DNA of 63,367 bases, the filler included, from Conidiobolus incongruus B7586 (taxonomy: Eukaryota), in the NCBI GenBank assembly GCA_000697335.1. It is 23 parts of 23 records of this genome, joined end to end, with 100 filler letters (N's around TTAATTAATTAA, not from the genome) between each part and the next. Parts side by side here need not be neighbours in the genome. Positions count along the whole stretch, not along the records: positions 1 to 8,302 come from JNEM01005701.1; positions 8,403 to 11,506 come from JNEM01005702.1; positions 11,607 to 13,889 come from JNEM01005703.1; positions 13,990 to 21,184 come from JNEM01005704.1; positions 21,285 to 25,389 come from JNEM01005705.1; positions 25,490 to 30,960 come from JNEM01005707.1; positions 31,061 to 32,627 come from JNEM01005708.1; positions 32,728 to 38,091 come from JNEM01005709.1; 15 more parts are not named here. One strand, written 5' to 3'. How positions within the stretch are numbered: position 1 is the stretch's first letter; every line of letters begins with the position of its first letter. The notes below the pieces were generated by a model. That model was not told the DNA's origin, searched no databases, and worked only from the letters and a program-made list of their open reading frames with translations. Shown here piece after piece: positions 1-61,934 of this stretch. Position numbers and translations under genes: made by a program.

Positions 1-1513
1 CAATAACTCTCTTAATTTTTAATTAAATTTATTTAAATTAAAATATATAATAAATTTATATTATTTAGTTATAATTCAATATATTTAATTTATTAATATT
101 AACTTTTAATTAATATAATAAAATTTATATTTTATTTCAGATAAGTCATAAATTTGTGTATTTTGGTTATGGAAAGAAAATTGAAACTTAGTATATCTAT
201 CATTTACTTTTTTAATTTTCTTAAGTTTATAAGGTATAGAGTTAACTAACTTTTTATATTAATAAGGATTAATTTTTTTCTAAGTTTTTTGAATATATTC
301 CTAAAGCTTATTTAAATTCTTTATTAGTGGGAAAGCTTTTATTATTTTATTAACTGATCCTAAAGGTATTTAATTGGATTAAAGTTAAAAAATTAAAGCA
401 ACCACTTTATAACTATTATTTTATTATTTTAAAACCATTTAATAATAGAAATAATAATATAACAAAAGGTATTATCTTGTTGGAAAACAACATCTGATTT
501 ATTTAACCTATATTATTTAATAATTTTTTTAATTTATTATCTAAAATATTTTAATATATCTTAATATTAATTCTTTTATTAATTTTACAAAGATATTTTA
601 TACAACAAAATAGCATATATTCCTAAACTATAATTGACATATTATTATATTTTTGGGTTAAAATAACATAATGGTTATAAAGTAGTTCTTTGTCTTTTTT
701 GAAATATCTAGCTTTTTTATTAGATATACTAAAGTATATTTTTGTTTCATTGGACTAAATAACTTTATTCTAATTAATATCAGTTTAATTTTAATAATGA
801 CATTTAAATTTTTGTTTAACTTTACAATGGTATTTTTTTAGTTAGGGGTATTTTTCCTTAAAGCTTAAATAATATCTATTATAGCATAAAATATATATAT
901 AATAATATTAGTATCAATTAATATTCCTATATAGTTTTGTAAATTTTCTATACTTTTACAATAATATTACACTTACCTATATTAACTAAATTATAAATAT
1001 ATCTTTTATCATATTTATTTATAATCCTTATATACTTAAGTTTAAGTTTAGATATACCTTTACTACAATTTTTAATAGCTTTAACTATAATAAACTAGCT
1101 AATATTAATAATTCCAGCAATCTCATGAATTGATTTATCTTTATTATAAAGTTGATTAATATATAAGTGAATCTTTTTATAGAAGGAATTAAGTATTTTA
1201 ATATTAATTTATTTATATAATAGTATTAATATTTATTTATATATAATTTAATAAAAAAAGGATTTAAGTAATTTTTGTTTTATATATCCCTTTAACTTAT
1301 AAACCTACAAATCTATAACTCATCCTATTTAAAGTTTAAGATTTAATATATTAATCAGAAATCTATTAAATATAATTAAATATAACCTATTATAATCAAG
1401 TAATATACCTTAATTATATACTTTAATTTATATTAATTTAATTAAGAATTTTTTGAGTTATAAATGAATATATAAGTTATTTATATTTAATGACTCGTTT
1501 TTGTAAGCTAGTG
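1..1513 (-). mobile_element. Tc1-like (DD34E) DNA transposon relic, family A copy 1, truncated by window start, hypermutated
   Basis: The minus strand reads AAA GTT ATT TAG TCC AAT GAA ACA (ancestral KVIWSDET, ~742-766) and GTT TTC CAA CAA GAT AAT ACC ... AAT CCA ATT AAA TAC CTT TAG GAT CAG (VFQQDNA...NPIEHLWDQ, ~354-488). The D codon (474-476) and the E-position codon (369-371) have 34 codons between them. The element ends in TIR ...GTAAGCTAGTG followed by TA at 1514-1515. Confidence 0.9.
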
Positions 1514-4500
1514 TATATTATTTTAATTAATTAAGTAATTGGTTTTTTTAAATCAATAATATTATATTGTTAATATTGATTTATTAATAAACTTTATTTT
1601 ATTTTTTGTTATTATTTTATAATTATAATTTATGACTATTATTTTCTAAAATTCAGAATAATTTTTAATAATATGTTATAATATATTAATAATATTTATT
1701 ATATAATTTAAAATCAAGATATATTAGTTTATATTTTGATTTTTAAATAAAATTACTATTCAACAAAATATATATTATTAATCTTAATTTAAATTTCTTT
1801 TTGTTAGATATAATATTAAATTCTAAAATTAATATAAAACTTTTTATTTAAAAGTTTTAAAAAGTTATTATAAACTATATAAATATTAAAAATTAATTGT
1901 TCAGTCTATAATAGTAAGTTTTAATACTATAGTAATAAAATCTATATTGATAAAGTCATTATTTTATAATTATATATTATAATTTAAATACTGTAAAAGT
2001 TTATTTATAAAATTCATTTAAATAAAGATTAAAATTTTTAAAGTCATATTGGTTAACAACAAATCATATTTAATCAAATAATTTATATAAACTTATGAAT
2101 ATATTTTCCAAAATTTTATAAAATAATAGTCTTAAATAAATCTTTATAGCTTTCATTATTATATATTTTTTCCAAACTAATTCTATTAATATTTATATAA
2201 TTTTTTTAATATAATTGCAATCAGTCAAGTTCCCAATAATTTAATACTATCAATAGAATCATTCTAAGCCACATTTGAATAAGCCTGTTATTTATACCGG
2301 TTTGGCATTTTGTAACAGAACTTTCGTGATGAATAATATTCGTAGAAAATTTTACATCTTTTGCAAGAGTATTTTTTTCATTATAGGAGATTTAATGAAA
2401 TCTTAAATATTTTAAATAAAAAAGTTGGCTTTATTTAAAGATCTTTTTGATACTACGCTATCTCCTTGATTTTTAACTGGAATGTTTATTTCCATAGAAA
2501 TAGTCAACTAATGCACCAATAGGTATAATATCCATCTGAATTTTTTACTTTTTGAACCTATATTTGTCCCGATGTTATATACTCTCTTGTATTTCAATTC
2601 TGTTACCATAATTTCCAATTATGAAATAAATATTCGTGAAAGCCTGATTTAATAATATAAAGCTATATTTTCTAAAAATTCAGAATTTACTAACTCAATA
2701 AGATTTGTTTGTAAAATATAAATAATTTAAAAATTATTGTACTCAATATAATTAATTGGATATATGATTTTGATTAGGTATAAAATTATTAAGATTTTCC
2801 AAAAAATTTTACACCATTACTCTTATTTGATTGGTTACAAATATAACCCAATCTTTCTTCATCAATTAATCTGAACAAATTCCGAAAGCTAACCACGTTT
2901 AAGAATTAATTTCAATTTTAACATAACTTTCAAAATATATATCAAGCTAATTTAAATTAATAATCTAAGATATTAATGATTTATTTCAAAATATAAATAG
3001 TAATTAAATATATCAGAACAGTATATTTTAATATATAATCTATTATATTTAATAGTTAGAATTATTATTCTTAAAATATTGAGATAATTATAGTTAAATA
3101 ACAAACTCTAAATTAAAAATATATTTTAAATTAAATAAAATGATATATATTTTGATAGTTGAAGGTTTAATGTTTTCAAAATATATCTTGAAAAATATAT
3201 GAATAGAAGATACTATAAATATAATAGTTATTAATAGTATTCTTTTCTAACATGAAAAATAAAATAATACTAATTAACATCAATAGTGTTAATCAATAAT
3301 AAGGTTGTATATTTTAAAACTATTCCTAATTGACAGAAATTATTAATCAAGTATATCTTAAAATGATATACTTTCATCAATTCATAATTATTTTACTTAC
3401 TCTAACTACTAGTTCTAATTTTGCTATATAGCATTATATATAATTTATTATTAATAGATTAATTATGATTTCTTATTGAAAAATTTTCAATTAAAGGCAT
3501 TTCAAATATTTTATATATAAAGTTCATCAACTCTTAAACTTATGATTATAAATTGTAATCATAGATACATACTAATGCAATTTAAAAAATTTTTGTTTGA
3601 TGTTATTTACAAAAAGGTTTATCAATTAGCTATATAACTGTCATTCACCAATTTTGAAATCAATTAACAATTGATTTCAAGTTAAAAACATTCTATATAA
3701 GATATTCCAATAATAATATACAGTTAAAATCCTTTAATTCGGGATTGTTTAATTAATTTCAACTATTAATATATAACATAAAATTCTGATAAAGTAGCTC
3801 TAAATTAAGTATTGGTATCGCATCATAAAGTTTATACATTTTGTTCAGAATATTCTCTAAAAATTAGAACGAAATTCATGTAAACAATATTGATATATAA
3901 GATGAAATGAATTCGTTAATATGAGCAAATTACTTTATTATAGGATTATTCCATGTATATAATTATGTTTTTAAAATTATAGTAAATAATTATATTACTG
4001 TGAAAGCAATTTATAATTTGTTCAGGAGGAAAATAACCATGCATATTTTTTCAACTATATTTAAATTCTGATATGTATGTGTCAAAGCTGACAAATCGGC
4101 ATTTTAAAAAAATTGCAAATAAATTATAATAAACAAAAAATAGGTGACCACTTATTTATCTTTGAATTACTGCTTTAGTGAAGTTATTCATGAATATTAG
4201 CAAGGTATTTGGATGTACCATTTTTAAGATAAATCATTTTAAAACCCAAATCATTTTGAATTTGTATACATATGTCTTATAACCAAATACAAAAAATAAT
4301 CCTTTTATAAAAAAATATTGTGTTTCTAGTTTGTAAGTTAATTGATTATAGATCATATGGATAAACTAAGATTATAACCATACAAAAACTATCGTTTGAT
4401 TGAAAGTAAATATAAATATGCAATCTAAAAATATTATATATTCTCTATATTTAGTTAAATTTAAAACGTGATTAATTTGGATAAGATTAAAACATGAGAA

Positions 4501-5228: not shown

Positions 5229-5277
5229 CTTGGAAAAATCCGTTAAAATTTTAATTATTGAATAAAGAATAATTGAA

Positions 5278-6600
5278 ATGGATGTTGAAAAGCAGGTGCA
5301 GAGCAATGATAATATATGTGTCCAGACTAACGAGAGGCAGCAGGATTTATTAAATCAGATGGAACCTGTGGATAAACCTCAATGCTTTGGCAAGTTGGAT
5401 TCTGGAAGATCATGGTTAATAGCAATAGCTGGATTCACTATTAATTTTATGGTTTTTGGGTCGGCTTCAATATTCGGTGTATACTTGAACCATTATACAA
5501 ATTATGAATTTAGTAGTGAGCCAAAATCAACACTGTCTTTGGTAGGAGGCCTCGGGCCTGCTATTTTCGCATTATGCTGTCTTCCCTCTGGTATTATAGC
5601 AGGTAAAATTGGTCACAGAGTCACAATATTCATTTCTGCTGTTGTGTTTGGTATTGGATTGGTTATTGCTTCATTTGCAACTCAAGTGTGGCACCTATTC
5701 ATAGGGCAAGCACTGTTCATTGGATTTGCCATAAGCTTGTGTTTCATTCCTACTGTCAGTATCATCCCACAGTGGTTCGAAAGACATCGAGGCATTGCAC
5801 TTGGCATTTCAGCTGCTGGTTCAGGTATTGGCGGTCTTGTACTTGCTCCCTTAATTCAAGCCATTATTGATTCGATCGGAATCAGGTGGGCACTTCGTGT
5901 TAATGCCATTTTAGGTGTTGTGGGTCTGATTGCATGTGGATTTATTGTTAAGCCTAGAGTTCATACACAGCCTCAGAAAAAATTGATTGATTTAAAAGTT
6001 ATACTTGATAAAAAATTTATCATGATGTGGTTCATGGCCTTTTGTTCGTGCTTTGGATACTGGACACCATTTTTTTTAATTCCTTTATATTGTAAATATT
6101 ATGGTATATCTGCATCCACTTCAAGTTTAATAGTAGGTTTAATGAATGGAGGATCAGCTGTTGGACGTATTGCTATGGGACAGATCACCAATTATATTGG
6201 TAGTATCAACACGTTATTCTTATGTCACTTTGTAGTAAGTTTGTCATTTGTAATCATATGGCACTTTGCAACTGTAACTTGGTCATTGATTATATTCTCG
6301 ATTATATTTGGATTTTTCTCAGGTGCTTTCTTCACTCTTGCAGCTCTAATTGCCCCTCAATTATTTGGGATTCAAAAATTAGCTCAAGTTAACGGTCCTT
6401 TTTACACTGCATGCTCGCCAGGGTTTTTGGCCGGTACCCTGATTTCTACAGCCATTGTAAATGCTTCGACTAGCTTGGATGGCACTTATATTGATTACTT
6501 ACCAATGCAACTCTATCTATTCGGTTGCTATATGTTATCCTGTTTGTTTGTTATCCTGTTAAAATTTCAACTAACTAAAAATCTATTTGCAAAATTATGA
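5278..6600 (+). CDS. MFS transporter, monocarboxylate porter (Mch/MCT-like) family, 440 aa, intronless
   Basis: About 12 hydrophobic segments. Family motifs include D-S-G-R-S-W before TM1, IPQWFERHRGIALGISAAGSGIGG and NGGSAVGRIAMG. Confidence 0.92.
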   Translation: MDVEKQVQSNDNICVQTNERQQDLLNQMEPVDKPQCFGKLDSGRSWLIAIAGFTINFMVFGSASIFGVYLNHYTNYEFSSEPKSTLSLVGGLGPAIFALCCLPSGIIAGKIGHRVTIFISAVVFGIGLVIASFATQVWHLFIGQALFIGFAISLCFIPTVSIIPQWFERHRGIALGISAAGSGIGGLVLAPLIQAIIDSIGIRWALRVNAILGVVGLIACGFIVKPRVHTQPQKKLIDLKVILDKKFIMMWFMAFCSCFGYWTPFFLIPLYCKYYGISASTSSLIVGLMNGGSAVGRIAMGQITNYIGSINTLFLCHFVVSLSFVIIWHFATVTWSLIIFSIIFGFFSGAFFTLAALIAPQLFGIQKLAQVNGPFYTACSPGFLAGTLISTAIVNASTSLDGTYIDYLPMQLYLFGCYMLSCLFVILLKFQLTKNLFAKL

Positions 6601-8302: not shown

Positions 8303-8402
8303 NNNNNNNNNNNNNNNNNNNNNNNNNNNNNNNNNNNNNNNNNNNNTTAATTAATTAANNNNNNNNNNNNNNNNNNNNNNNNNNNNNNNNNNNNNNNNNN
8401 NN
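8303..8402. other. Artificial assembly spacer N44-TTAATTAATTAA-N44 (first of 22)
   Basis: Identical 100-nt spacers start at 8303, 11507, 13890, 21185, 25390, 30961, 32628, 38092, 39555, 40984, 42141, 43447, 44823, 46746, 48027, 50190, 51868, 53114, 54997, 58799, 60215 and 62115. The 12-mer provides stops in all six frames. Confidence 0.97.
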
Positions 8403-8534
8403 CAAAAATTATTTATTTTTTTTCTTTTATTAAATTATATATATTATTATATTTATATTATTATTTTAAATTATTATTTTATATAATATTAATATTAAAA
8501 TACTTAAATCCCTTTTTAAAAAAATTTACATATA
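8403..8534 (+). mobile_element. Tc1 family A fragment (5' leader plus first transposase codons), interrupted by the next copy
   Basis: Matches the reverse complement of ~39285-39420 (TTATTTTRAATTATTATTTT...AAAATAYTTAAATMCCTTTTTAAAAA). It stops at a TA where a degenerate TIR begins. Confidence 0.65.
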
Positions 8535-11506
8535 TATTAACTGATAAAAATAAGTTATAAAACCAAAATTACTTATATATTATCTATATCTTAAATATTA
8601 TTTAATTAAATGAATTTAAACTAAAATATATAATTTACATATATTAATTGACTATAATTAACTTTATTTGATTATATTTTTTTAACTACTGGTTAATATA
8701 TCAAAACTTAGAATTTAGCCAAAATAGCTTATAAATTTGTGGGTTTATAAGTTAAAAGGATATAAATAATAAAACTTATATATACTAGCTTGCAAAAGTA
8801 AGTTATAAAATTAAAAATATAAATATATCTATTAATATCTTGATCAATTCTAATTCAAATAAATTTATATTAAACTATGTAATTAATATATATTTTTTAT
8901 TTATAATATAATTTATAAAGGTAAATTTAATTAATTATTAATTGATATATTAAAACTAATAGTATACTTAAAATAAGTTATAAATTTGTGGGTTTTAGTA
9001 TTGATAGAAAAATTAATATCTAGTATATCTATTTTTTGCTTTTCTAACTTATTTAACGTTATAAAGCATAGAGTCAATTAACTTTTTATATTAAGTAAAA
9101 CTAATATTACTCCAAGCTTCTTAAATATACTTTTAAAGTTAATTTTAATTTTTTTCTAAAGGGAAACTTTAATTGATTTTTTTAGTTGATTCTAAAAATG
9201 TTTTATTGGGTTAAGATTAAGAGATTAAGGAGGCTATTTTATAATAGTTATTTTATTACTTTTAAGCCATTTAATAATAGAATTTATAGTATAACAAAGG
9301 GTATTATCTTGTTAGAGTATAATATTTAACTTATTTAACCTATATCACTCAATAGTTTTTTTCAATTTATTATTTAGAATACTTTAATATATCTCAGTAT
9401 TAATTCCCCCATCAACCTTATAAAGATATTATATACCTAAAGATAATATTTATCCATAAACTATAATTAACCTACTATTGTATTTTTAGGTTATAATAAC
9501 ATAATAGTAATAAAGTATTTTTTTATCTTTTTTGAAATATCTAGCTTTTTTATTATATCTATTAAAATATATCTTTGTTTCATTAGATTAAATAACTTTA
9601 CTCTAGTTAGTTTTAATTCAACTTTAGTATTAGTATTTAAACTCCTACTTAACTTTATAATAAGATTTCTTTAGTTGGTGGTGTTTTTTCTTAAAATATA
9701 AGCAATATCTATTCTAATATAGAACATATATAATAGTATTAGTACTAACTGATATTCTTATATAGTCTTATAATTTTTGTTGTACTTTTATAGTAATATT
9801 ACATTTACTTATATTAACTAATCTATAAATATACTTTTTATCATACTTATCTATAATTTTAATATACTTAAGTTTTAGTTTAGGTGTTTCTTTAGCATTA
9901 TTCTTAATAACCCTAGTTATAGTAGATTAGTTAACACTAGTAATTCTAACAATCTCACAAGTTGATTTATTTTTATTATAAAGTTAATTGATATATAAAT
10001 GAATTTTTTTAGAGAGAGATTTAAGCATTATAATATTAATTTTAAAATATTAGCTTAATAGTTTTATAATATATATAATATAACAAGAGAAAAAGAAGAT
10101 ATATATAAGTTTTGTTATTTATACCCTTTTAATATATAAACCTATAATTTTATAACTCACCTTGGTTAAATTTTAGGTATTAATATATTAACCAATAGTT
10201 AATAAAATATAATCAAATATAATTAGTTATAATTAACAAATATAGATAAATTATATATTTTAATTTAAATTTATTTAATTAAGAATTGTTTAAGATATAA
10301 TAAATATATAAGTAATTTTGTTTTTATAACTTACTTTTGAAGGCTAGAGTATATTTATTTCTTATATTATATATAATATAACACTATTATGTTAATATTT
10401 TAAAATTAATATTATAATGCTTAAATCTTTCTTTAAAAAAGTTCATTTATATATTAATTAACTTCTTAATAGAAAAAATCAACTTATGAGATTATTAGAA
10501 TTATTAATATTAGCTAATTTATTATAACTATGGTTATTAAGAAAAATATTTAAAAAACACTTAAATTAAAACTTAAATATATTAAAATTATAGATAAATA
10601 TAATAAAAAATATATTTATAAGTTAATTAATATAGGTAAATATAATATTATTTTAACAATATAATAAGAATTATAAAGCTATATAAGAATAATAATTAGT
10701 TTCAATACTATTATATATACTTTATATTAAAATATATAATACTTATATTTAAAAAAAACACCCTTACCTAAGGAAGTTTTATTATAAAGTTAAGTAAAAA
10801 TTTAAATATCACCATTAAAGTTAAATTAAAATTAATTAAAATAAAGTTATTTAATCTAATAAAATAAAAATATATCTTAATAAAAGATCTAAATATTTAA
10901 AAAAAGATAAAGAATTTTTTTATAATTATTATGCTATTATAATCCAAAAATACAATAATAGGTTAATTATAATTTAACGATATATATTATTTTTAGATAT
11001 AAGATATATTTTTAAGATTAATAAGGGAATTAATAATAAAAAATATTAAAATATTTTAAAAAATAAATGAAGAAAATATTTAATAATATAAGTTAAATAA
11101 ATCAAATATTATTTTTTAACAAAATAATACCTTTTATTATAATATAAATTTTATTATTAAATAGATTAAAACTAATAAAATAATTATTATAAAATAACTC
11201 TTAATTTTTTCATCTTAACCTAATTAAATATCTTTAAGATTAGTTAAAGAAATTAATTAAAGCTTTTCCCCTAATAAAAAATTTAAACCAACTTTAAGAG
11301 TATATTTAAGAAATTTAATATAATATTAATTTTGTTTGATAAAAGAAACTAGTTAATTATATACCCTATAAACTTAAAGATATTAAAATAATAAAAGATA
11401 GATATATTAGATTTTAATTTTTCTATCAATACTAAAACCCACAAATCTATAATATATTTTAAATATACTTATAATTTTAATTTATCAATTAATAATTAAT
11501 TAAATT
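8535..11506 (+). mobile_element. Tc1 family A copy, plus strand, interrupted at 8781/10351 by a nested minus-strand copy; right end lost in gap
   Basis: The left IR and leader at 8535-8780 are collinear with 53466-53720. The sequence resumes at ~10352 with the transposase relic (ATG CTT AAA TCT at ~10417; TTT TAA CAA AAT AAT ACC = FQQDNA at ~11114). Confidence 0.82.
8783..10349 (-). mobile_element. Tc1 family A full-length copy (~1.57 kb), hypermutated
   Basis: Both TIRs are present (TA-TACTAGCTTGCAAAAGTAAGTTATAAAA ... TTTTTATAACTTACTTTTGAAGGCTAGAG-TA) with a TA target duplication. The internal transposase relic is collinear with copy 1. Confidence 0.9.
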
Positions 11507-12846: not shown

Positions 12847-12902
12847 AGGCTATCAGTACTTAGCAATTTGATTAAACTCTGAGTTAATAAAATATTATAA
12901 TC

Positions 12903-13187
12903 ATGCAATTCTCTCTTGCCTCCATTTTATTGAGCGCTTTAGTTTTTAATGTCAACGCTCAAAGTCCCTGCTCCGCTAACTTCCAAATTGTTTACGAAGC
13001 TAATACTCTCTTACCCCATCCCAACTGCGTCAAGAGCTCTATTTTCGTTCACAATATCAATCGTACCTGTATCTACGAACATGGTGGTCAAACTATGTGC
13101 TCACTCTCAGCCTTCGGCACTGCTTTTGTAAATGGTACCAAGGAGAATGCCTACAGAGTCGCTGATATTTGTCAATGTCAAGAATAA
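12903..13187 (+). CDS. Small secreted cysteine-rich protein (94 aa, 6 Cys), unknown function
   Basis: Signal-peptide-like N-terminus (MQFSLASILLSALVFNVNA/Q), GC island relative to the flanks, C/T-ending codon bias, upstream TATA, and AATAAA at the stop codon. Confidence 0.85.
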   Translation: MQFSLASILLSALVFNVNAQSPCSANFQIVYEANTLLPHPNCVKSSIFVHNINRTCIYEHGGQTMCSLSAFGTAFVNGTKENAYRVADICQCQE

Positions 13188-40925: not shown

Positions 40926-41097
40926 TATATATATATATATAGTTTGAAAATATTTATTTTTCTATATATTATATATATATATANNNNNNNNNNNNNNNNN
41001 NNNNNNNNNNNNNNNNNNNNNNNNNNNTTAATTAATTAANNNNNNNNNNNNNNNNNNNNNNNNNNNNNNNNNNNNNNNNNNNNTATATATATATATA

Positions 41098-43039: not shown

Positions 43040-43446
43040 TTATTTTTTTAATAGCTTTATATTATACTTATAGCAAATTTCTAATTTTCAATAAGCAATC
43101 CATTTTATTAAAGACTAAAATTTAATATTTTAAATCAAAATCAATTTTTTTAAGAATTGGTTTTTTTTGCAAACTTATTATTAATTAAACTTAGCAATCA
43201 TAATTAGAAATATCATAATTTAATAAATATATTAACAATGATAAGTTTTCTTAACTATTTATAAGGAAGAATTTTTATAACTTCAGTTTTATATATTTTA
43301 CCTTAATAATATAAAATTATATTATTTTTATTTTAATAAAATTGATTATTGGGGAATTATTATATTTTAAAAAATATAAAGATTATATTAAATAGATTAG
43401 TTTTTAAAAATGGAAAAAGGAAACTATATAAAGTTATATTATATAT
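43040..43446 (-). mobile_element. Mariner family B C-terminal fragment, diverged
   Basis: Collinear with ~39830-40240 (TTTTATTAAAGACTAAAATTTAATATTT versus TTTTATTAAGGACTGAAATTTGATGTTT). Confidence 0.6.
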
Positions 43447-48126: not shown

Positions 48127-50060
48127 TTAATAATTTTATAATAGGGTAATATAGATTTTTTAAGATTAATTCTACTAATTTCTTTTAGAATATAAAAAAA
48201 ATAAATTTGTGACTTTTTAAAGAAATATTTATAGATATAAAACTGTGATATTTAAACTAATTTTAACCTAGTATAAAATTATAACTAATATTACTAATTA
48301 AAAATTTAATATATTAAAAGTAATTAGAAAGTAATAATAAATATTTAAATATAATATTAAATATTTATTCTATTAATTTGTTAGTATATTTAATTATCAA
48401 GTTATTTTTTTAAATAGGTAAAAATAATCTTATAATAATAATAAAAAAAATAATATAATTAAAGCAACTAGAATTAATTAAAACACTAACAAGTTTATCT
48501 ATAAAAGAATTAATTAACACAAACAATAAAGTGATAATTAAAGGTAATAAATTACAAAATAAATTAATTACTAAAATATTTCTAGTTTTTAATAGTTTAA
48601 TTAATTAGATTTCTCTAGTATATATAATTTAATTTGTAGAATTATTAGTCTATTAAAACTTTTGTAGATTAAATTAAAAACTGCTATTTAATTGTAAAAA
48701 AAGTAATTTTAAAGTTATATTAATATTATTTAAGTTTAATTTATGGTTAGTAGGTTAAGATTATTAAAAATTAAACAGATATTGTTTTTTTAAAAGGTAT
48801 TTGTTAGCTTTATAATAAACTTAAGTTTTTTAACAATAGTAACAATTTTTATTTACTTTTAAATAAACTTTAACTTCTTTATTAAATATTTTCTTATAAA
48901 GCTTTAAAATAGAAATATTTATCATTTGAAACTTAAGTAAACTAAAGTAAGTTTTAAAAAATTAATTTTTAAAATAAAAAAATTTAATAATAAAGTAAAA
49001 GATATTAACAATTATAAATATTATATCATAAATGTTAAAAAAACATATTATTAAATTTTTTTTTATTAACTAACTAAAGCTTTACTTGAAGATTAAGATA
49101 TTATAATAATTTATGGATTTATTTTTCTTTAGTGATATTTAATATATTAAAGCATATCTCATTAAATTTCTTAATTAATTATCTTATAGAAATTTTTTAT
49201 TTAAGTTAAAAAAGCTTTTCTCTTATTAATTAAACTTAATCTTTTAAGTAAAACCTTTTTTTAAAAGATTTTTCCAATTGTTTAAAAGTATATATTTTTG
49301 TATTAAGTTATCTTTTTAAAAATTCTTTAGGATTAAGTTTATAATAAGTTAATTACTAGATGTAAATAAATTTTTCTAAAAAAAAATAACTAATTTAAAA
49401 ATATTTTTTAAATTTCTATTAAAGATTAAATTAAAGTAATTTTTTATATTTTTAAAATAATTTTTAAGTTTGTAGAGGTTTTTAAAACTATCATAAATAG
49501 TTAATTTGTTTTTAAAGATATTAAAGAGGTAATTTAATATATTAACTATAATAAAATAGTTAGTTTATTAGATTTAAACTTTTTGAAACATATTTTTTTA
49601 ATCAAAAGTTGTTTAATATAGGTTTTTTAAAGGGTAATAAGTTTTTAAAAGCTAGAGTCTTAGATTTATTTAGTAATTAAGCTGTTATTATGATTAAAAT
49701 AATATAAGGGTATTTTTTTTAGTAGTATTATAGTATATAGTGTTAAATTTAAATAAAATAAATTATAGATAAAATTTAAAATAGTAATAAATAAATTTAA
49801 TATAAATAGTTATTGATTTTTAATAGGTTTTTTATAGTTTTATTACTGTTACTATATAAATATAATGATAATTAAACTAATATAATATAGAGGAAAACTT
49901 AATATAAAAGTAGTATGGTATAAAATATAATAATATAATGTAATTATAGTATGTAAATATAAATAAAGTTTAATTAAACTTTAAACTAAAGTAAATCACT
50001 AATATATTAAGATTTATATTAGGTAATACTAATATAATATAATATTAATAAGAAGTAGTT
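48127..50060 (-). mobile_element. Ty3/Gypsy gag-protease relic, family C copy 2
   Basis: Minus strand ~49060-49215 back-mutates to LFQLKQ..SVRQLIEEFDEIC..IPDITEEEQIHK (Retrotrans_gag-like). GTT TTA ATT AAT TCT AGT TGC (VLIDSGC) lies at ~48464-48484. Confidence 0.75.
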
Positions 50061-50289: not shown

Positions 50290-51849
50290 CTAACCTATAA
50301 AAATAAGTCATAAAATTAAAAATATATATATTTCTATTAATATCTTAATCAATTCTAATTTAAATAAAATTATATTAAACTATATAATTAATATATATTT
50401 TTTATTTATAATATAATATATAAAATTAAATTTAATTAATTATAAATTGATATATTAAAATTAAAAGTATATTTAAAGTGAGTTATAAATTTATAGGTTT
50501 TAGTATTGATAGAAAAATTAATATTTAATATATCTATCTTTTGCTTTTTTACCTTTTTTAAGTTTATAAGGTATAGAGTTAACTAGCTTTTTATATTAAG
50601 TAAAATTAATATTACTCTTAACTTCTTAAATATACTCTTAAAGTTGATTTAAATTTTTTGTTAGGGGGAAAGCTTTAATTAATTTTTTTAGTTAATCCTA
50701 AAGATATTTAATTAAGTTAAAATTAAAAGATTAAAGAAGCTATTTTATAATAGTTATTTTGTTATTTTTAAGCTATTTAATAGTAGAATTTATAGTATAA
50801 CAAGGTGTATTATCTTATTAAATAATAATATTTGATTTTTTTAATCTATATCACTTAATAGTTTTTTTCAATTTATTGTTTAAAATACTTTAGTATATCT
50901 CAACATTAATTCCTTTGTTAACTTTATAAATATACCCTATACTTAAAAATAATATATATCCTTAAATTATAATTAACTTATAATGATATTTTTGGGTTAT
51001 AATAATATAATGATTATAAAATAATTTTTTATCTTTTTTGAAATATCTAGCTTTTTTATTAAATTTATTAAAATATATCTTTGTTATATTAAATTAAATA
51101 ACTTTATTTTAATTAATTTTAGTTCAACTTTAGTGTTAATATTTAAATTCTTATTTAATTTTATAATAAAACTTTTTTAGTTAGGGGTGTTTTTTTTTAA
51201 AATATAAGTGGTATTTATTCTTATATAAAATATATATAATAATATTAATATTAACTAATATCATTATATAGTTTTATAATTCTTGTTATATTTTTACAAT
51301 AATATTATATTTACCTATACTAACTAATTTATAAATATACTTTTTATCATATTTATTTATAATTTTAATATATCTAAGTTTTAGTTTAGGTGATTTTTAA
51401 TATTGTTTTTAATAACCCTAGCTATAATAGATTAATTAACACTAATAATTCTAGTAATCTCATAAGTTAATTTATTTTTATTTTAAAGTTAATTAGTATA
51501 TAAGTGAATTTTTTTAGAGAGAGATTTAAACATTATAATATTAATTTTAAAATATTAGCTTAATAGTTTTTATAAATAAATAATATAACAAAAAAAAGTT
51601 ATATATAAGTTTTGTTATTTATATTTTTTAACATATAAACCTATAAATTTATAACTCACTTTGGTTAAATTTTAGGCTTTAATATATTAACCAATAGTTA
51701 ATAAAATATAATCAAATATAGTTAATTATAATCAATTAATATAGGTAAACTATATATTTTAATTTAAATTTATTTAATTAAGAACTATTTAAGATATAGG
51801 TAAATATTTAAGTAATTTTGATTTTATGACTTATTTTTGCAAGCTAGTG
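50290..51849 (-). mobile_element. Tc1 family A near full-length copy
   Basis: TIR remnants at both ends (CTAACCTATAAAAATAAGTCATAAAA ... TTTTATGACTTATTTTTGCAAGCTAGTG-TA). Collinear with 8783-10349. Confidence 0.9.
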
Positions 51850-51967
51850 TATAATTTAATTTAAAATNNNNNNNNNNNNNNNNNNNNNNNNNNNNNNNNN
51901 NNNNNNNNNNNTTAATTAATTAANNNNNNNNNNNNNNNNNNNNNNNNNNNNNNNNNNNNNNNNNNNN

Positions 51968-53113
51968 TTAAAACTAATTAGAAACTATTAAGAGAATTAA
52001 AATAAGATATTATTTAGTTATTTTGATTAAATTAATTTTAAAATATATCAATACCTATAAAATATGCTAAAAAAATAAATATAATACCTAATTAAAATAT
52101 AATAAACTTATTTTATTATCAGCTTTTAATAAATTTTAATAGTAAATTTGAATTAATTTTATATAAACTTTTAAATCAACAAATAATGATAATAACTTAT
52201 GAATTTTAATTAATTTATTCTTTAAATAAATTTATTTTATTCTTTATTTCATAACTTTTATAACTAAAGATATTATATAACTATTATTCTCTAATGTTTT
52301 TAATTTTTATAAAATTTTATAAATTATTATATTTAATATGATATATATTTTAACTCTTAATTTTCAAAGTTATTATCATTTCTTTTAAGATTAACCTAGC
52401 TATGTTTATTATTAATTATTACTAAATTGATAGATTTATTAAAAAAATTATTAAAATCTTAAAACAAATGATTAAAGCTTATATTAATATTAATTTATTA
52501 AGTTAAAATACTTATATCTATTAACTTTAATATACATTTAATATTTTAATTAAAAGACTAATAGGTTTTAATATTTATTTTATTAATTATAATAAATATC
52601 CTAATTAATAGTTGTTTTAAAACTTTAAATCAACTTATCTTTAGATATTATTGAAATTTTAATTTAATAATAAATATATTAACTTTTTTATTAAAATCAA
52701 CTTAGAAATATTAAAAAATTATAAAATAATAATATTGAAAAATATTTAAAAATTCTTCTAAATATAAAATATGTTTATTTATTTAAAATGATTGGCTTTT
52801 AAACTTACTTTACTTAAATTGAACTTAAATCTAAAGCTCTTACTATTATATTATAATCCCTATAAAATTTAATATATTGATTTAAATTTTAAAAATATTA
52901 TTTTAAATTAGCTTTAAATGAGGATTAATTTTAACAATTATATATTTAAAATCAAACTTTATTTTGAAGATTTTAATATATTTCTTAATTAATTAAAAGA
53001 TTTAAAGCCAAAAATAATTATTAATTAAAATTAAAAAAATTTTATATTAGCTATATAATTTAATCTTAATCTATTAAAAATAAACTTTATTTTTAAATAA
53101 AATAAATAGGATA
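51968..53113 (+). mobile_element. Ty3/Gypsy integrase relic with possible chromodomain start
   Basis: ATG TTT ATT ATT AAT TAT TAC TAA ATT GAT AGA TTT ATT AAA at 52402 back-mutates to MSTANHxQTDGxTE, followed by ILKQMIKAY. The 3' end resembles P.III....F.V..I...Y..KW.GY. Confidence 0.72.
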
Positions 53114-53465
53114 NNNNNNNNNNNNNNNNNNNNNNNNNNNNNNNNNNNNNNNNNNNNTTAATTAATTAANNNNNNNNNNNNNNNNNNNNNNNNNNNNNNN
53201 NNNNNNNNNNNNNATTAATTAATAAAATTTGTAAAATTTACAAATTATATTTATTTTTTAAATTTTTATAACTTAAATATTATTCTAATAATTGATATAT
53301 ATAATGAATTAAAATAAAATTATAATAAATTTATTTATATATTATTTGATATTATTTATATTAATTATTTATAATAAAGAGTGTAAATAAGAATATTGCT
53401 AAATAAATATTTAAATATAATTATATTTAGTTTAAATTAAAGATCAATCTTATATGAAATATATA

Positions 53466-54994
53466 TAATTGCCTATAATAATGAGTCATAAATTCAGAAT
53501 TATTTATATATTTAATGATATCTTAAATAATACCGAATTAAATAAATTTAAATGAAAATATATAATTTACATATATTAGTTGATTATAACTAACTATATT
53601 TGATTATATTTCAATAATTCCTGGTTAATATATCAAAATCTGAAATTTAACCAAAGTGAGTATTAAATTTATGGGTAAATATATTAAAGGGGTATAAGTA
53701 ACAAAACTTATATAAATTTTGTTTATTTTTTATTATATTATATATATTATAAAACTTACAAGTTAATATACTAAAATTAATATTATAATTCCTAAATCTC
53801 TCTTTAAAAATGTTTATTTATATATTAATCAACTTAATCATAAAAATAAATTAACTTATAAAATTATTAAAATTACTATTGATAGCTTATCTATTATAGC
53901 TAGAGTTATTAAGAACAAAGTTAAAAAAATACCTAAATTAAAACTTAAATATGTTGAAATTATGGATAATCAAGATAAAAAGTATATTTGTAGATTAATG
54001 AGTATAGGTAAATTAATTATTGATATAGAAGTGTAACAAGAATTACAAAACTATTTATGAATATTTTTAATACTAATATTATTATATATGCTTAATATTA
54101 GAATAAATACCACTTACACCTTAAGAAAAAACACCCTTAATTAAAAAAGTCTTACTATTAAGTTAAGTGAGAGTTTAAATGCCAATATTAAAATAGAACT
54201 GAAACTAACTAAACTAAAGTTATTTAATTTAATGAAACAAAGATATATTTTAATAGATTTAATAGATAAACTAGATGTTTCAAAAAAGATAAAGAACTAC
54301 TTTATAACTATTATATTATAACAAACCAAAAGTATAATAATAGGTTAATTATAGTTTAAAGAAGTATATTATCATTAGGAGTAAAATATCTTTATAGGCT
54401 TATTAAGGGAATTAATGCTGAGATATTTTAAAGTATTTTAATTAATAAATTGAAAAAAATATTAAGTGGTATAGGTTAAATAAATTAAATATTATTTTCC
54501 AACAAGGTAATACCCCTTGTTATATTATCAATTCTATTATGAAATGGCTATCCCAATTTACTAATTTTAATATAATTGAAAATCTTTAGGACTAACTAAA
54601 AGAATTAATTAAAGTTTTCCACCCAGAAAAAATTCAGATTAACTTTAAAAGTATATATAAGAAGCTTAGAAAAATATTAGTTTTATTTAATATAAGAAGC
54701 TATTTGACTTTATGCCCTATAAACATAAAGAAATTTGAAAAACAAATGGTAGATATAGTAGATATTAATTTATCTATCAATAATAAAACCTGCAAATTTA
54801 TGACTCATTTTTGGAATACATTTGATTTTAATTTATCAATATAAAATTATTCAAATTTAACTTTAAATATTATATTATAAATAAAATATTTATATTAATA
54901 ATAGTTTAATTAATTTATTTAAATTAGAATTAATTAAGATATTAATAGAAATATTTATATTTTTAATTTTATAACTCATTTTTGCAAGCTAATA
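53466..54994 (+). mobile_element. Tc1 family A full-length copy with in-frame 33-nt deletion
   Basis: TIRs at both ends flanked by TA. Retains TTC CAA CAA GGT AAT ACC CCT TGT and ATT GAA AAT CTT TAG GAC (IENLWD). Confidence 0.9.
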
Positions 54995-55149
54995 TANNNN
55001 NNNNNNNNNNNNNNNNNNNNNNNNNNNNNNNNNNNNNNNNTTAATTAATTAANNNNNNNNNNNNNNNNNNNNNNNNNNNNNNNNNNNNNNNNNNNNTATA
55101 TTTATTTTATTTATTATTATATAACTATACTATATATATCAAAATTTAA

Positions 55150-55810
55150 ATTTGATATTTTTAATAAATTTATAATATAAATATATATCAATTTAATAAT
55201 GATATGTAAATAATTAAACTAATTATAACTCAATAAATAATGTCGAATTATAACCAAAAATATAGGTTTTTTTAAAACATCAAATTTAATAAATTTTAAA
55301 ATTTCAAATATAAAAGTTTATAAATTAAAATATCATATTAAAAGATTTTGTTTAATAGATTTAAATAAATAGATACTTTATATATAAATGATTATAAATT
55401 ATTATAAAAGATTATATAATATCTATATTTAGTTTTTAAAAATAAATAAATTATTTAAAATTCTTATAATATTTATAAATAAAATAATTTTAAATCAATA
55501 ATATTATAAATTAAAAATAAATATTATTTTGTATATTAATTACAAAATTAATAAAATTAAAGTTTTAAAAGATTTTTTATATTCGGTATATTTACTAAAT
55601 TAAAACCTATATGATTTTAATTACTTTAGCTAAATAAAATATTCTTGCAAGAAATAAAATTCCTAAATATAAATTAAATTAATTTATGAAATATCAAATT
55701 TCAGTATTTAATAAAAAGAAAACTTTGGTGGGTATTTAAGTATATTAAAAATATTGCAAAGAATAATTAAAGTTAAAAGAAAATATTAATACTTTATTCT
55801 TATATAATAT
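55150..55810 (+). mobile_element. Mariner family B relic, strongly diverged
   Basis: TAT TTA CTA AAT TAA AAC CTA TAT GAT TTT AAT TAC TTT (~55589) and AAATATCAAATTTCAGTATTTAATAAAAA match 47720-47850. Boundaries are approximate. Confidence 0.6.
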
Positions 55811-56001
55811 CTACAATATAAATTTTAATAATTATATTTAATTTTGATTTTAAATTTGTATGATTATTTAATTTCTTTACTTATAAATATAAAATCACAT
55901 TAAATAAATATAATAAAATATGAACCAAAAATTTTATTAGAGTATTAGGGGGAATGGAAATTAATTTTGGAACTTGAGATAAATGTATTGCCTTAACCAA
56001 A

Positions 56002-56577
56002 TCATTGACTAGCAGCAGATGCATCAGCGTTAGGTTCTCCATCATAAGGTGAACCACCGCCATATTGATTGTATCCACCATAGCTATTACCGTAGCCATA
56101 TTTCTTTCCAGGCGGTCCAGGAGGTCCAGGAGGTCCGGGAGGACCTGGAGGTCCAGGAGGTCCAGGGGGTCCATCCTTTCCAGGAGGTCCGGGAGGTCCA
56201 GGTGGGCCAGGTGGGCCAGCAGGTCCTGGAGGTCCAGGTGGACCAGCGGGTCCGGGAGGTCCTGGAGGTCCTGGAGGTCCAGGTTTACCATCTTTACCTG
56301 GAGGTCCAGGAGGTCCTGGGGGTCCAGGTTTACCATCTTTACCATCCTTACCAGGAGTCCCGGGAGGTCCAGGTGGACCAGCAGGTCCTTGAGGTCCTTG
56401 AGGTCCTGGAGGTCCGGGTTTGCCACCACCATAACCACCATAACCGCCACCATAAGGACTTGGTTTATATCCTCCTCCCTTACCAGATTCAGGTGAGAAA
56501 GCTTCTTCCCCTTGGCCAAGTGCGCCAGAGATCAAAGAGAAAATAATAGCGAAAGTAACAGTATTAAGCTTAACCAT
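56002..56577 (-). CDS. Secreted collagen-like protein, 191 aa, (Gly-X-Y)36 flanked by Gly/Tyr-rich arms
   Basis: Signal peptide of ~21 aa. Residues 52-159 are 36 uninterrupted triplets, 22 of them GPP. No Cys. TATATAAA lies ~57 nt upstream on the minus strand. Confidence 0.92.
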
Positions 56578-57255: not shown

Positions 57256-58217
57256 TATTGGGGTTTAAACTTGCCCCATTGGAAGGAATCCTGTAAAAGA
57301 ATAGAAAGTATTAGGCAAAAAAACCAAAAAGATAGATAAAAGATAAAAAAAATAAAGTTAAAATTAATAAAAATAGAGCACCTGGTTTATTTAAAAAAAT
57401 CAGATGGTTTAAATATTTCAGACTTATTAAACTTTGTCTTATAAAGTAGATTATCTAGAATATCATAAGTTTTTAGAATAAAGAGTTAAAATACTCCTTT
57501 ATTATCTTATCTTTTGAAAGTTAAAGTTTTATCCAGCTTAAATTAAAGATCTTTTGATTTGATAATTAGATGAAAAGAAAAATATATCCTTATACTTATT
57601 ATATTACCAATAAATCAAAAAAAATACATAGGCTATAAATATTTAGTAACAAAATAATAAATATATAAAAAAAATATAAATGAAAAAAGATAAACAAAAG
57701 CTAGATAATATATTAACCTAGTAATTTGCAAAAAAAAAATCAATAGATTAGCTTTGAAGATATAAGATTAATAATTTTAGCAAAAGCTCATAAACTTAAA
57801 ATTATTAATTATTATTTAAAAATTCTAGAATAAGTAATATAGAAAAAAAAGTAAAGTCTTAAAAAAAGGTTTAAGATAAAATATCTTAAATTAAATAATT
57901 ATTTTAACTAAATTAAATTAATCTTAAGATTTCTATAATAGTCCCTAATAGAATTATTATTTATTAGGGTTTAAACTTGCCTTATTAGATGGAATCCTGT
58001 AAAAAATTAGAATTATTAGGCAAAAAAACTAAAAAGATAAATAAAAAATAAAGAAAAAATAAAGTTAAAATGAATAGAAATAAAGTACTCAGTTTATTTA
58101 AAAAGGTCAAATTGTTTAAATATTCAAACTTATCAAATGATAGCTTATAAAATAGATTATTTAGAATATCTTAAGTTTTTAAAATAAGGAGTTAAAATAC
58201 TTTCTTAATACTTATTT
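57256..58217. mobile_element. TRIM-like element: two ~255-bp direct repeats (57256-~57511, 57962-~58217) around ~450 bp non-coding DNA
   Basis: The repeats align end to end (TATTRGGGTTTAAACTTGCC...GGAATCCTGTAAAA...TAGAATATC.TAAGTTTTTA.AATAA.GAGTTAAAATACT) and are homologous to the LTR-like unit at 32438 and 62749-63051. No TSD was resolved. Confidence 0.65.
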
Positions 58218-60363
58218 ATAGTATTAATATACTTAAATCAATTGATTTTATTATATTTAAAATATTTGAAAATTTGTTATAAAATATAATTTAAATAATC
58301 TAAAATAAAAATCAAAAAAAAATTAACAAAAATATAAATTATTATATATAATATTATGATAAACTGTTATTTTATATAAAATTCTCGAAATTATAAATTT
58401 TAATTAATAGTAAGAAAATATATTTTGTTAATTAAATTAACAATATAATTTATAATAATATAGTTGATAGAAAATTGATAATATAATTAATTCAACAAAT
58501 GTAATAATCTATCAATTATTATTGTCTTAATTATCCAATTTAAATTTATCTTTAATTTTGAAATTTCACACTAGCTAATTATTATCATTATTAATTTTAT
58601 TGATTTAAGTTATTGATTTTAAAATGAGAAACTTTTTATTATATATTTTATAATATAAAATCAAATTAATAAAATAAATAAGGATATTTTGAAATTTTTA
58701 AATCAGGTTATAAATTAATTAATATTTTTAAATAATAATATAATATTATAATTTATTTGATAATTTAATAATTTTAAAATTTAAAATTTATATTTTTANN
58801 NNNNNNNNNNNNNNNNNNNNNNNNNNNNNNNNNNNNNNNNNNTTAATTAATTAANNNNNNNNNNNNNNNNNNNNNNNNNNNNNNNNNNNNNNNNNNNNCA
58901 ATTATATACTGACAAAGCCAGCTTAAAATAGAAATAATATTGGTTTAGCTATCAAACTGGAAGAGATGATTAATTTTGAAATACAACAATATAAATAAAA
59001 CAATTATTATAAGTTTAAATATTAATTTAAATATTAAATAAATAATTAAAAAATATTAAATAAAAAAATAATTAAAAAAAGAATTATAAAAAAATTCTTA
59101 ATTAGTTTACCTTTGGTTTTAAGTTATTTAATAAATAATTTCTGTAATATTATAGTTTAATTTAGAAAATCGTTAGTTTATTATAATTATTATGGAATAA
59201 ATTAAAATTTATTATTAATTTTCAAAAAATAATTTTAAAGTTATTATAATATTATTTGACATTATTTTATAATTATTAAATTATAAATATTATAGATTAG
59301 GTTTATTATTATAACTTGAAAAGTTATTTATTGGTTTAATAATTAATATAAGTTTTTCAATATTATTAGGAGCATTTATTTTTTCTTAATATAATATTTA
59401 CTTATTTATTAAAAGTTTTTTATATAATTTTCAAATAAAATAGTCAATTATTTATGATTTATATAAATTAAAATCTATTTTAAAAGTTTAGCTTTATAAA
59501 TAATTAATTATAAATTAAAAGATATTATTTGTTAAAATTATTATAACAGATATAGCTAAAAAAATTATTAATTTTTTATATAAATTAATCCAAACTCTCT
59601 TAAAAAATTAAAATTTAATAATAGCTTCTTATTATATAATTTGTTAATAATATTTAATATAATTCAAAAAATCTTATTAAACTTTATAATAAGTTATTTT
59701 ATAATAAATTTTTTGTAAAAAAAGATTTTTTAATTACATCAACCTTATTTTTTAATTTAATTTTTTTAAAAAATTTAGCTATTTAAATAATTTAATTTTT
59801 TGAAATTATCTTTTTGAAAGTTTTTTAAGATTCAGATAATAATGAATTAATAATTTAAAATAAACTAAATTTTTAAAAAAAACTATTTAATTTAAGGATA
59901 TTTTTTAAATTTTCAATAAAGTTAATTTTAATTAATTTATTATATCTTCAAAATAACTTTTAAGTTAAAATAAATATTTACAAATTTTATAAATATATAA
60001 TTAATCTTTAAAATATTAAAATTTTATTTTATATATTATCTCTGATAATTATTAATTTATTGAATATAAACTTTTTAAGCTATTTTTTCTTAAAAATTAT
60101 ATGATATATTTTTTTAAATAATAACAAGCCTTTAATAATATAAATTTTAAAATAACTCAATAGTTAATTAATAATTTTTATAAAAATAATATAATATCAT
60201 TAATATATTATTATNNNNNNNNNNNNNNNNNNNNNNNNNNNNNNNNNNNNNNNNNNNNTTAATTAATTAANNNNNNNNNNNNNNNNNNNNNNNNNNNNNN
60301 NNNNNNNNNNNNNNTAACTTTATTTATTCACATATTATTTACTATAATTATAACTGATATATA

Positions 60364-61934
60364 TACTAATCTGCATAAGTAAGTTATAAAATCAAAAACA
60401 ATTATATTTTTACTAATAATTTAATTAATATTTAATAAAATAAACCTAAATTAAATAATTAAAATCTATTATATTTATTAATTATATATATCATTAAATG
60501 ATGATATTTAGCTATTAATTAGTTAAAGTATAAATCCTTAAATTTTACTTAGGATAAGTTATAAATTTGTAGGTTTTTGGTGATAAAAAAAATTAAAATT
60601 TAATATATTTACCTTTAGCTTTTTTAACTTCTTTAAGTTTGTAGGGTATAGAAATAACTAATTTCTTATACTAAAAAGGGTTAATCTTGTTTTATGCTTC
60701 TTGAACATATTTTTAAAGTTGATTTAAATTTTTTACTAAAGGGAAAACTTTAATAACTTTTTTTAACTAATCCTAAAAGTATTTAATTAGATTAAGGTTA
60801 AAAAATTAAAGAGGCTACTTTATAACTATTATCTTATTATTTTTAAATTATTTGGTAATAAAAGTTATAATATAACAAAAGGTATTATCTTACTAGAAAA
60901 TAACATTAGATTTGTTTAACTTATACTATTCAATAGTTTTTTTCAATTTATTATTTAGAATACTTTAGTATATTTCAGTATTAATTCCTTTATTAACTTT
61001 ACAAAGATACCTTATACTTAAAAATAATATATATCCTTAAATAATAATTAATTTATTATTATATTTTTAAGTAAAATTAATATAATAGTTATAAAATAAT
61101 TCTATATTTTTTTTAAAGTATCTAGTATTTTTATTAAATTTACTAAGTTATATTTTTATTTCATTAAAATAAATAACCTTATTCTAATTAGTTTTGGTTT
61201 AATATTAATAGTGATACTTAAACTCCCACTTAACTTTATAATGGGATTTCTTTAATTGGGGGTGTTTTTCTTAAGATATAAGTGGTATCTATGTTAATAT
61301 AAAGTATATATAATAATATCAGTGTTAATTAATATTCTAATATAGTTTTATAGTTCTTGTTATATTTCTACAGTAATACTATATTTGTTTATATTAATTA
61401 ACCTATAAATATACTTCTTATTATATTTATTTATAATCTTAACACACTTAAGTTTAAGTTTAAATATGTTTTTATTGTTATTTTTAACAACCTTAACTAT
61501 AATAAACTAACTAACACTAGTAATTCTAATAATATTATAAGTTGATTTACCTTTTTTACAAAGCTAATTAATATACAAGTAGATTTTTTTAAAGAGGGAT
61601 TTAAGTATAATAATACTAGTAAAAAAAATTTAATATATCTGTAAAATATTATATCAAATAATAACAAAGAGAGAAAAAAGATATAGTTATATATTATTAA
61701 ATATATCCCTTTATCTTCAAAACCTATAAATTTATGACTCACCTTAGTTAAATATTAAATGTTAATATTTTTGCTAATAGTTTACTAAATATATATAAAT
61801 ATATTTATTTATTATTAAATAATATACTTCAATTATATATTATAGTTTTAAATAATCTAATATATATAATTATTTTAGATATTAATTTAAATATATATAT
61901 ATTTGATTTTATAACTTTTTTTTGCAAATTAGTG
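60364..61934 (-). mobile_element. Tc1 family A full-length copy
   Basis: TA-TACTAATCTGCATAAGTAAGTTATAAAATC ... GATTTTATAACTTTTTTTTGCAAATTAGTG-TA. The internal region is collinear with the other copies. Confidence 0.9.

Follow-up and report, generated by a model that had tools for sequence, protein, structure and literature searches.

Known systems of repeat mutation in fungi

Loss of cytosines that is confined to repeats has been described in several groups of fungi, and the closest of these systems are compared here with decayed Tc1, mariner and long terminal repeat (LTR) retrotransposon-like relics of Conidiobolus incongruus B7586 (assembly GCA_000697335.1). The relics lie in the window, by which the whole stretch of 63,367 bases that was analysed is meant; it consists of 23 contigs of 1.1-8.3 kb each and is not one locus. 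Their C-to-T hypermutation is real, with a loss that depends on the base 3' to the cytosine (CpG > CpA > CpT > CpC), and is not specific to CpA.

In Neurospora crassa and other Pezizomycotina, repeat-induced point mutation (RIP; RID, DIM-2) leaves dense C:G>T:A changes that are confined to repeats, occur on both strands, are independent between copies and give a positive composite index. The relics share these characters, with a high density of C:G>T:A changes in repeats while unique DNA is spared. They differ in that CpG, which is not the main target of Neurospora-type RIP, is lost first and completely (observed/expected ratio, o/e, 0.06), and in that CpA, which is dominant in that system, is only modestly ahead of CpT (77 % vs 68 %). 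Moreover, a 92 %-identical gene pair is spared here and the host belongs to the Zoopagomycota. Mitotic mutation by Dim2 in Zymoseptoria tritici, for which coupling to the enzyme has been proposed, is likewise transposon-confined, affects methylated repeats and prefers CpA over CpT, but more than 98 % of its C>T changes are at CA and CG is spared (PMC8016269), whereas in the relics CpG is erased and both CpT and CpC are heavily affected.

In Basidiomycota and Tuber (Masc2/DNMT1 class), where methylated transposons decay at CpG, this erasure is likewise confined to repeats, and Tuber shows CpG plus CpA; CpG signatures in transposable elements have been attributed to methylation and deamination (PMC4352252). 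The basidiomycete pattern is restricted to CpG (CpG/TpCpG), whereas 42-77 % of non-CG sites are lost in the relics. Among early-diverging fungi, Phycomyces blakesleeanus (DIM2, DNMT1) shows transposon-restricted methylation of CG over CHH, the substrate pattern that is needed by the reading preferred below, but it belongs to another phylum and what is reported is methylation, not mutation; 5-methylcytosine (5mC) in repeats is also described for Linderina (PMC11258239).

Whether RIP-like mutation occurs outside the Dikarya is debated. In the same order of fungi as Conidiobolus it has been proposed, with caveats from the authors, on the basis of a RIP index that covers 24.2 % of Zoophthora radicans and, in three relatives, 2.4-5.7 %; no value for Conidiobolus is given in the available text (PMC11105155). 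A kingdom-wide screen, on the other hand, detected the RIP signature in ascomycetes alone and scored C. coronatus, the only Conidiobolus among the entries obtained, as 'no_rip', with an AT-rich 4-mer enrichment in repeats of 0.87-1.03 (PMC12543289). The distribution of RID/Masc1 has been surveyed, and C. incongruus described as rich in transposable elements (PMC5751038). The idea of a defence of this kind, called poorly described in an earlier note on this DNA, is not wholly new, given the Z. radicans indices. Those are dinucleotide indices obtained without alignment or context, whereas a polarised spectrum with CpG first is presented here. A literature search with most subscription papers outside its scope found no context-resolved spectrum for Conidiobolus transposons.

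Tc1 relics and their mutational spectrum

Self-comparison of the window gave a Tc1 family of seven long copies, 71-87 % identical, and one fragment. A profile search with the Tc1 frame found 1171 proteins at E<=0.001, the best of which, P0123 (E=7e-59), is an intact transposase of 338 amino acids with DDE_3 and HTH_Tnp_Tc3_2 domains. The multi-copy Tc1 relics of the earlier note are thereby confirmed, and the helix-turn-helix and DDE_3 domains, the length of about 340 amino acids and the terminal inverted repeats of a Tc1 element are all found. In the copy at 8765-10353 the transposase frame (10028-9168) is colinear with P0123 at 37 % identity. No relatives of P0123 were found in viral contigs. 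A broken Tc1 relative on a metagenome contig (L072, 898-1234) has a CpG o/e of 0.25 and a CpA o/e of 1.50 over the match, a CpG-only type of decay unlike that of the Tc1 relics in the window.

Six intact, aligned relatives (P0123, P0287 and L001-L004) were used as polarising references. Residues identical in at least five of the six (154 of 287) were taken as invariant, and fixed codon positions were read in the seven copies, each reading being counted as a cell.

1-1533 (-): Tc1 relic; 81/125 invariant C/G cells lost; contig shared with a major facilitator superfamily (MFS) gene
8522-8784 (no strand): Tc1 end fragment, inverted-repeat region; 263 bp, excluded from the polarised counts
8765-10353 (-): Tc1 relic, full-length, with long terminal inverted repeats; 73/124 cells lost, the least mutated by count
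10354-11506 (+): Tc1 relic, the most mutated copy; 97/117 invariant C/G cells lost
38192-39554 (-): Tc1 relic; 91/125 invariant C/G cells lost
50290-51867 (-): Tc1 relic; 87/125 invariant C/G cells lost
53440-54996 (+): Tc1 relic; 75/118 invariant C/G cells lost
60346-61952 (-): Tc1 relic; 92/125 invariant C/G cells lost

At the invariant residues, 596 of 859 C/G cells had changed to T/A, a cytosine loss of about 70 %, whereas 850 of 912 A/T cells were kept, with 13 transitions and 49 transversions; the saturation with C>T and G>A noted earlier thus stands. CpG columns were hit hardest (85 of 90 cells lost), followed by CpA (125/163, 77 %, interval 68-85), CpT (121/179, 68 %, interval 58-77) and CpC (98/231, 42 %, interval 31-55). 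The class of G after a purine-ending codon was empty and CpT was assigned from neighbour columns instead; purine-neighbour columns of uncertain type, which may hide old CpG, lost 167 of 196 cells. In site-level tests CpA exceeded CpC (p=0.0003) and CpT exceeded CpC (p=0.007), while CpA and CpT did not differ significantly (p=0.19, or p=0.011 with the uncertain purine columns included). The earlier claim that changes sit mainly in CpA does not survive these counts, although a moderate CpA preference is seen in composition and simulation.

The erasure of CpG is also evident from codons. Eight of the 16 invariant Arg codons look CGN-derived, and CG was kept in none of their 56 cells in the seven copies; one Arg codon reads CAT, TGT or TAT depending on the copy. 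The seven relic frames contain one CG in total; the intact relatives, whose GC content is however 46-57 %, have 46-86 per kb. Trp codons (n=55) have become TAA (21) or TAG (19), as the earlier note had observed, with TGG in 7, TGA in 5 and others in 3; their fit gives 1.45 hits per site for CpA, 0.85 for CpT and 0.55 for CpC. The strands behave alike (C>T 133/206, G>A 463/653), and the identity of the 5' base makes no difference in Tc1 (0.62-0.68).

Different copies have lost different cytosines, again as noted earlier: the 21 pairs of Tc1 copies are discordant at 22-39 sites each. In every pair more sites are kept jointly than independence would give, which points to shared history or a site effect. 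Two copies show 2 changes in 128 A/T sites as against a loss of 59-74 % of their C/G cells. Unpolarised pairs of mariner and gag-like copies follow the same order (CpA 0.84-0.88, CpT 0.73-0.74, CpC 0.42-0.67) in counts that are saturated and blind to CpG. An UNREST model gave C>T 64, G>A 56 and a reverse rate of 9 (log-likelihood -6328 vs -6333 for GTR); it assumes stationarity, gains little over GTR and is not relied on.

Mariner and LTR-retrotransposon-like relics

The mariner family comprises seven copies, 58-86 % identical by self-comparison. A short single stretch of frame, from WVPHEL to YSPDLAP, matches the Mos1 transposase (E=1.6e-7), which upholds the earlier identification. Searches with the mariner alignment, by word index among 7992 candidates and by profile against PDB, gave no match, so that this family could not be polarised. 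The sequence at 47709-47747, from which a sparing of AGC had been read, is as quoted, but AGC survives in that copy alone and the other six copies differ.

46846-48026 (+): mariner relic, Mos1-like (E=1.6e-7); no CpG; contains the motif at 47709-47747
39693-40983 (-): mariner relic; no CpG
41084-42140 (+): mariner relic; no CpG
25562-26255 (-): older mariner relic, on the contig of a TM7S3/TM198 gene
29918-30960 (-): older mariner relic, on the contig of the TM7S3/TM198 gene
42939-43446 (-): older mariner fragment, from self-comparison
55103-55930 (+): older mariner relic, adjoining a collagen-like gene

Three gag-like copies were found by self-comparison, two of which (48231-50060 and 44923-46745) are 82 % identical with a transition/transversion ratio of 2.4. 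The Gypsy element of the earlier note has weak support: for Ty3/Gypsy (gag, reverse transcriptase (RT), RNase H and integrase in Ty3 order), there are weak matches to gag (E=0.001-0.02) and integrase (Integrase_H2C2, E=0.11), on separate contigs, and the RT part found no Pfam or PDB match. The motifs at 43.8-44.4 kb, read by eye and without a tool match, are probably those of an RT.

44923-46745 (+): LTR-retrotransposon gag-like relic; Retrotrans_gag E=0.021, below the Pfam cut-off
48231-50060 (-): LTR-retrotransposon gag-like relic; Retrotrans_gag E=0.0011, below the Pfam cut-off
58979-60214 (-): older gag-like relic, from self-comparison
43547-44822 (+): probable RT relic, from motifs read by eye; no CpG, CpA o/e 0.55
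51968-53113 (+): probable pol relic; Integrase_H2C2 E=0.11 only; no CpG, CpA o/e 0.61

Base composition, rates and simulation

Tc1, young mariner and gag-like DNA (19,913 bases) has a GC content of 13.7 %, 6 CpG where 93 are expected (o/e 0.06), and o/e values of 0.62 for CpA, 1.39 for CpT and 1.90 for CpC. Other non-coding DNA (28,630 bases) has 18.3 % GC, a CpG o/e of 0.76 and a CpA o/e of 1.07, and coding sequences have a CpG o/e of 0.65 (183 vs 283 expected); outside transposons CpA o/e is 1.03-1.09. Against GC-matched non-repeat tiles (20 of 78, below 16 % GC; CpG o/e 0.58, CpA o/e 1.03), the transposons differ in CpA against CpT (Fisher p=3e-23) and in CpG against GpC (p=3e-5). The composite RIP index is negative over genes and positive over most transposon windows. 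The repeat-specific process accounts for a transposon GC content below that of host non-coding DNA, not for the host's 18 %; the extreme AT content, which according to the earlier note it may explain, is found in non-repeat non-coding DNA without a CpA deficit.

In the first contig the ratio of CpA to CpT lies at 0.44-0.86 as far as position 2000 and at 0.9-1.9 thereafter, with a step near the Tc1 edge. The approximately 500 bases past the Tc1 end (1534-2033) have 9-10 % GC and no CpG, and reflect a spread of the process into the flank or else an older repeat that was not recognised as such. In the four oldest mariner copies there are 7 CpG vs 10 expected, with a CpA o/e of 0.80, which, on small counts, suggests that targeting ends and background mutation resumes.

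The ratio of C>T to A<>T changes is 7.8-17.3 in transposon pairs (an unpolarised, stationary estimate that excludes the four oldest mariner copies and one gag copy) and 22-65 in polarised Tc1, where the 65-fold figure omits 5 of 133 A/T sites changed in all copies and the 22-fold figure includes them. In host controls, which are small (1174 and 140 sites), it is 3.0 for the flank of a Sec14-like gene pair, itself only 64 % identical, and 2.6 for the four-fold degenerate sites of the pair. The process is hence repeat-specific, as proposed, and not a general AT bias. The load amounts to 1.18 hits per C/G vs 0.018-0.054 transversions per A/T site.

Forward simulation was run from three intact frames with seven rate sets. 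The relic profile to be matched (GC 0.15, CpG 0.03, CpA 0.59, CpT 1.40, CpC 2.03) lies between two sets with relative rates of 5 for CpG, 1.5-1.9 for CpA, 1.0-1.1 for CpT and 0.4 for CpC. The other five (no context, CpA only, Neurospora-like, CpG only, and CpA equal to CpT) fail. CpA-only and Neurospora-like rates, the latter set in the Neurospora order of context preference, end at a CpG o/e of 1.8-2.7 and a CpA o/e of 0.03-0.14, vs 0.03 and 0.59 in the relics, so the Neurospora-type CpA signature invoked in the earlier note does not fit. A CpG-only process, as in basidiomycete CpG decay (PMC4352252), ends at 39 % GC with the CpA o/e raised to 1.44, whereas the relics have 15 % and 0.59. The context-free process gives a CpG o/e of 0.58 and a CpA o/e of 1.06.

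The host and the Sec14 gene pair

Four genes serve to place the host and as controls.

17715-19942 (+): SCT1 glycerol-3-phosphate acyltransferase, host marker; three open frames
5278-6600 (+): intact MFS transporter gene, host control; best named matches from C. coronatus (57 %)
23142-24326 (+): Sec14-like gene, copy a; intact, 37 CpG
34446-35630 (+): Sec14-like gene, copy b; intact, 32 CpG, 91.7 % identical to copy a

The last frame of SCT1 has its best matches in Entomophthoromycotina and is 87 % identical over 425 residues to C. coronatus KXN72366.1, which is in the top cluster. The SCT1 stretch is present in four DNA runs of one study and in no RNA run, which has no bearing on expression. 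The MFS gene has 14 matches at E<=1e-60; 13 of them have 47-61 % identity, and all six species-named ones among these 13 are from C. coronatus. Atlas clusters for this gene mix Ascomycota and Zoopagomycota and leave the taxon unsettled; it was the homologue search that gave C. coronatus. These matches assign the host to Conidiobolus (Zoopagomycota) and, as the earlier note had supposed, place it outside the Dikarya; it is a relative of that C. coronatus but distinct from it. The relics belong to this host because the Tc1 relic at 1-1533 shares a contig with the MFS gene at 5278-6600.

The Sec14-like (CRAL/TRIO) locus is duplicated (21876-24794 and 33211-36077), with an upstream flank of 64 % identity, and represents paralogues or divergent alleles. 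The two genes are 91.7 % identical over 1194 bases and both open. Their GC content at four-fold degenerate sites (GC4) is 0.31-0.32 (0.24-0.40 in three other genes), and C/T differences between them are flat across contexts (0.11-0.19). Classical RIP is expected to mark a duplicate of this kind, and the unmarked pair, a weak control, argues against homology-triggered RIP.

Mechanism and rival explanations

Any mechanism has to account for what is established for the relics: cytosines have changed to T, in a set order of contexts, only in repeats and independently in each copy. The explanation that we favour, with modest confidence, is CG and non-CG methylation of transposon chromatin by an enzyme of the DNMT1/DIM-2 class, followed by deamination; of the options in the earlier note, methylation then deamination fits the spectrum best. 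Such a methyltransferase would mark CG and, more weakly, non-CG sites in transposon chromatin, and deamination of the methylated cytosines would give C-to-T changes on both strands in the order CpG, CpA, CpT, CpC. It would be their state as silent transposon chromatin, not DNA-DNA homology, that singles out the copies, with 5mC as the presumed intermediate. Maintenance of CG methylation may have led to the complete loss of CpG and de novo non-CG methylation to the remaining loss, and the process would fade once a copy is too decayed for targeting. As expected for decay of 5mC, CpG is lost from repeats and retained in genes.

Several points weigh against methylation and deamination. A load of 1.18 hits per C/G is very high for passive deamination at low-level non-CG methylation; Zoopagomycota are described as poor in 5mC (PMC11258239); and the repeats of C. 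coronatus lack AT-rich k-mer enrichment (PMC12543289). The Tc1 relatives used for polarising are only 27-41 % identical to the relics, and the polarised counts come from one family, with cells that are not independent. The Sec14 control consists of one pair, whose genes are under selection, lie on different contigs and may be alleles, and weaker RIP on unlinked repeats has been described (PMC12543289). PF00145 genes are present in all fungi of one study (PMC11105155). The enzyme supposed here would be of the DNMT1/DIM-2 class. The PF00145 family also includes DNMT2.

That copies with hardly any other change bear so heavy a C>T load suggests that mutation is coupled to an enzyme, and keeps a RIP-like mutator among the possible explanations. 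It may tentatively be proposed that an active, RID-independent, enzyme-coupled repeat mutator in Conidiobolus erases CpG and most other cytosines soon after insertion. A homology-triggered RIP-like mutator acting at zygospore or resting-spore formation with the order CpG>CpA>CpT>CpC, alone or on top of CG methylation, is conceivable but rather doubtful. It would agree with the heavy C>T load of young copies (2 changes/128 A/T sites, 59-74 % of C/G lost), with DNA transposons and a retroelement being affected alike, with the positive composite index over most transposon windows and negative index over genes, and with the CpA deficit that extends about 500 bp past the Tc1 end in the first contig; a RIP index over 24.2 % of Z. 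radicans (PMC11105155) and RIP at CpA plus CpG in Aspergillus (PMC4352252) also favour it. It is at odds with the 1.19-kb Sec14 pair (91.7 %), which is open, has kept 37 and 32 CpG and has an ordinary GC4, and with a preference of CpA over CpT of just ~1.3-1.7 fold. In addition, Masc1/RID homologues are unreported in early-diverging fungi, apart from one bacterial-like chytrid protein, in the available part of PMC5751038, and C. coronatus was scored 'no_rip' (PMC12543289).

The loss in all four contexts (42-100 %) could also be produced by a cytosine deaminase (AID/APOBEC-like or an oxidising enzyme pathway) acting on transposon DNA without methylation. Enzymes of the APOBEC type have 5'-context and single-strand preferences. 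In the relics the preference depends on the 3' neighbour and not on the 5' one, the strands are symmetric and cut-and-paste transposons are affected, which makes this explanation improbable. Neutral decay under a genome-wide GC-to-AT bias is more improbable still: dead elements would drift AT-rich anyway in a host whose non-coding DNA has 18 % GC, but the transposons overshoot the host level (13.7 % vs 18.3 % GC), CpA o/e is 1.03 in GC-matched non-repeat tiles vs 0.62 (p=3e-23), the C>T over A<>T ratio is 2.6-3.0 in host controls vs 22-65 in Tc1, and the context-free simulation misses the CpG and CpA values. That the transposon-only contigs come from a RIP-competent ascomycete and were co-assembled through their low GC is hardly credible. 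Thirteen of the 23 contigs are indeed mainly or wholly transposon, without any gene linkage, but a Tc1 copy that matches theirs in family and spectrum lies on the contig of the C. coronatus-like MFS gene, mariner copies adjoin two other host genes, and the spectrum differs from the usual ascomycete one.

Other features of the window

The contigs are joined by 22 identical spacers (N44-TTAATTAATTAA-N44, from 8303-8402 to 62115-62214), and order and adjacency across them are therefore meaningless. The spacers also create false repeat families and false adjacency in the window. Long intact genes are found on 6 of the 23 contigs, and most of the others consist of transposon relics. The Rfam search gave a single match, one tRNA.

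20593-20674 (+): tRNA gene (Rfam RF00005, E=1e-10), downstream of SCT1
27140-27913 (-): TM7S3/TM198-like membrane protein gene, intact, flanked by two old mariner relics
56002-56574 (-): small collagen-like protein, probably secreted; Gly-Pro-Pro repeats, Pfam Collagen E=7e-17

The collagen-like gene is intact and GC-rich and sits between two decayed repeats. A short Cys-rich open frame of just under 100 amino acids with a signal-peptide-like start lies at about 12900-13200 (+), and a GC-rich patch (up to 40 %) with CpG and no frame of at least 100 amino acids, possibly a small or intron-split gene, at about 28900-29400. A fourth repeat family (32129-32627, 62862-63367, 57256-57816 and 57962-58523) includes two copies that are 98 % identical (98.4 % in 499-base segments, 4 transitions in 8 differences), possibly an assembly overlap, and two in tandem that are about 70 % alike, lack CpG and are low in CpA. 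The 12-mer TATTTTAATAAT occurs 3 times where 3.1 occurrences are expected by chance.

Implications for Conidiobolus and its relatives

The window provides, for a culturable Conidiobolus, a spectrum that is polarised and based on alignment. It shows that an index-positive signal in this order of fungi can be CpG-first and not CpA-specific, and that an AT-rich non-coding background can mask such a signal from k-mer screens. For the methylome, the prediction is methylation of CG far above CA, then CT, then CC, in transposons only. If a RID-independent mutator were indeed at work, mutagenic genome defence would predate the Dikarya, ascomycete RIP would be a CpA-specialised derivative of it, and current RIP screens would miss mutators of this kind in AT-rich genomes.

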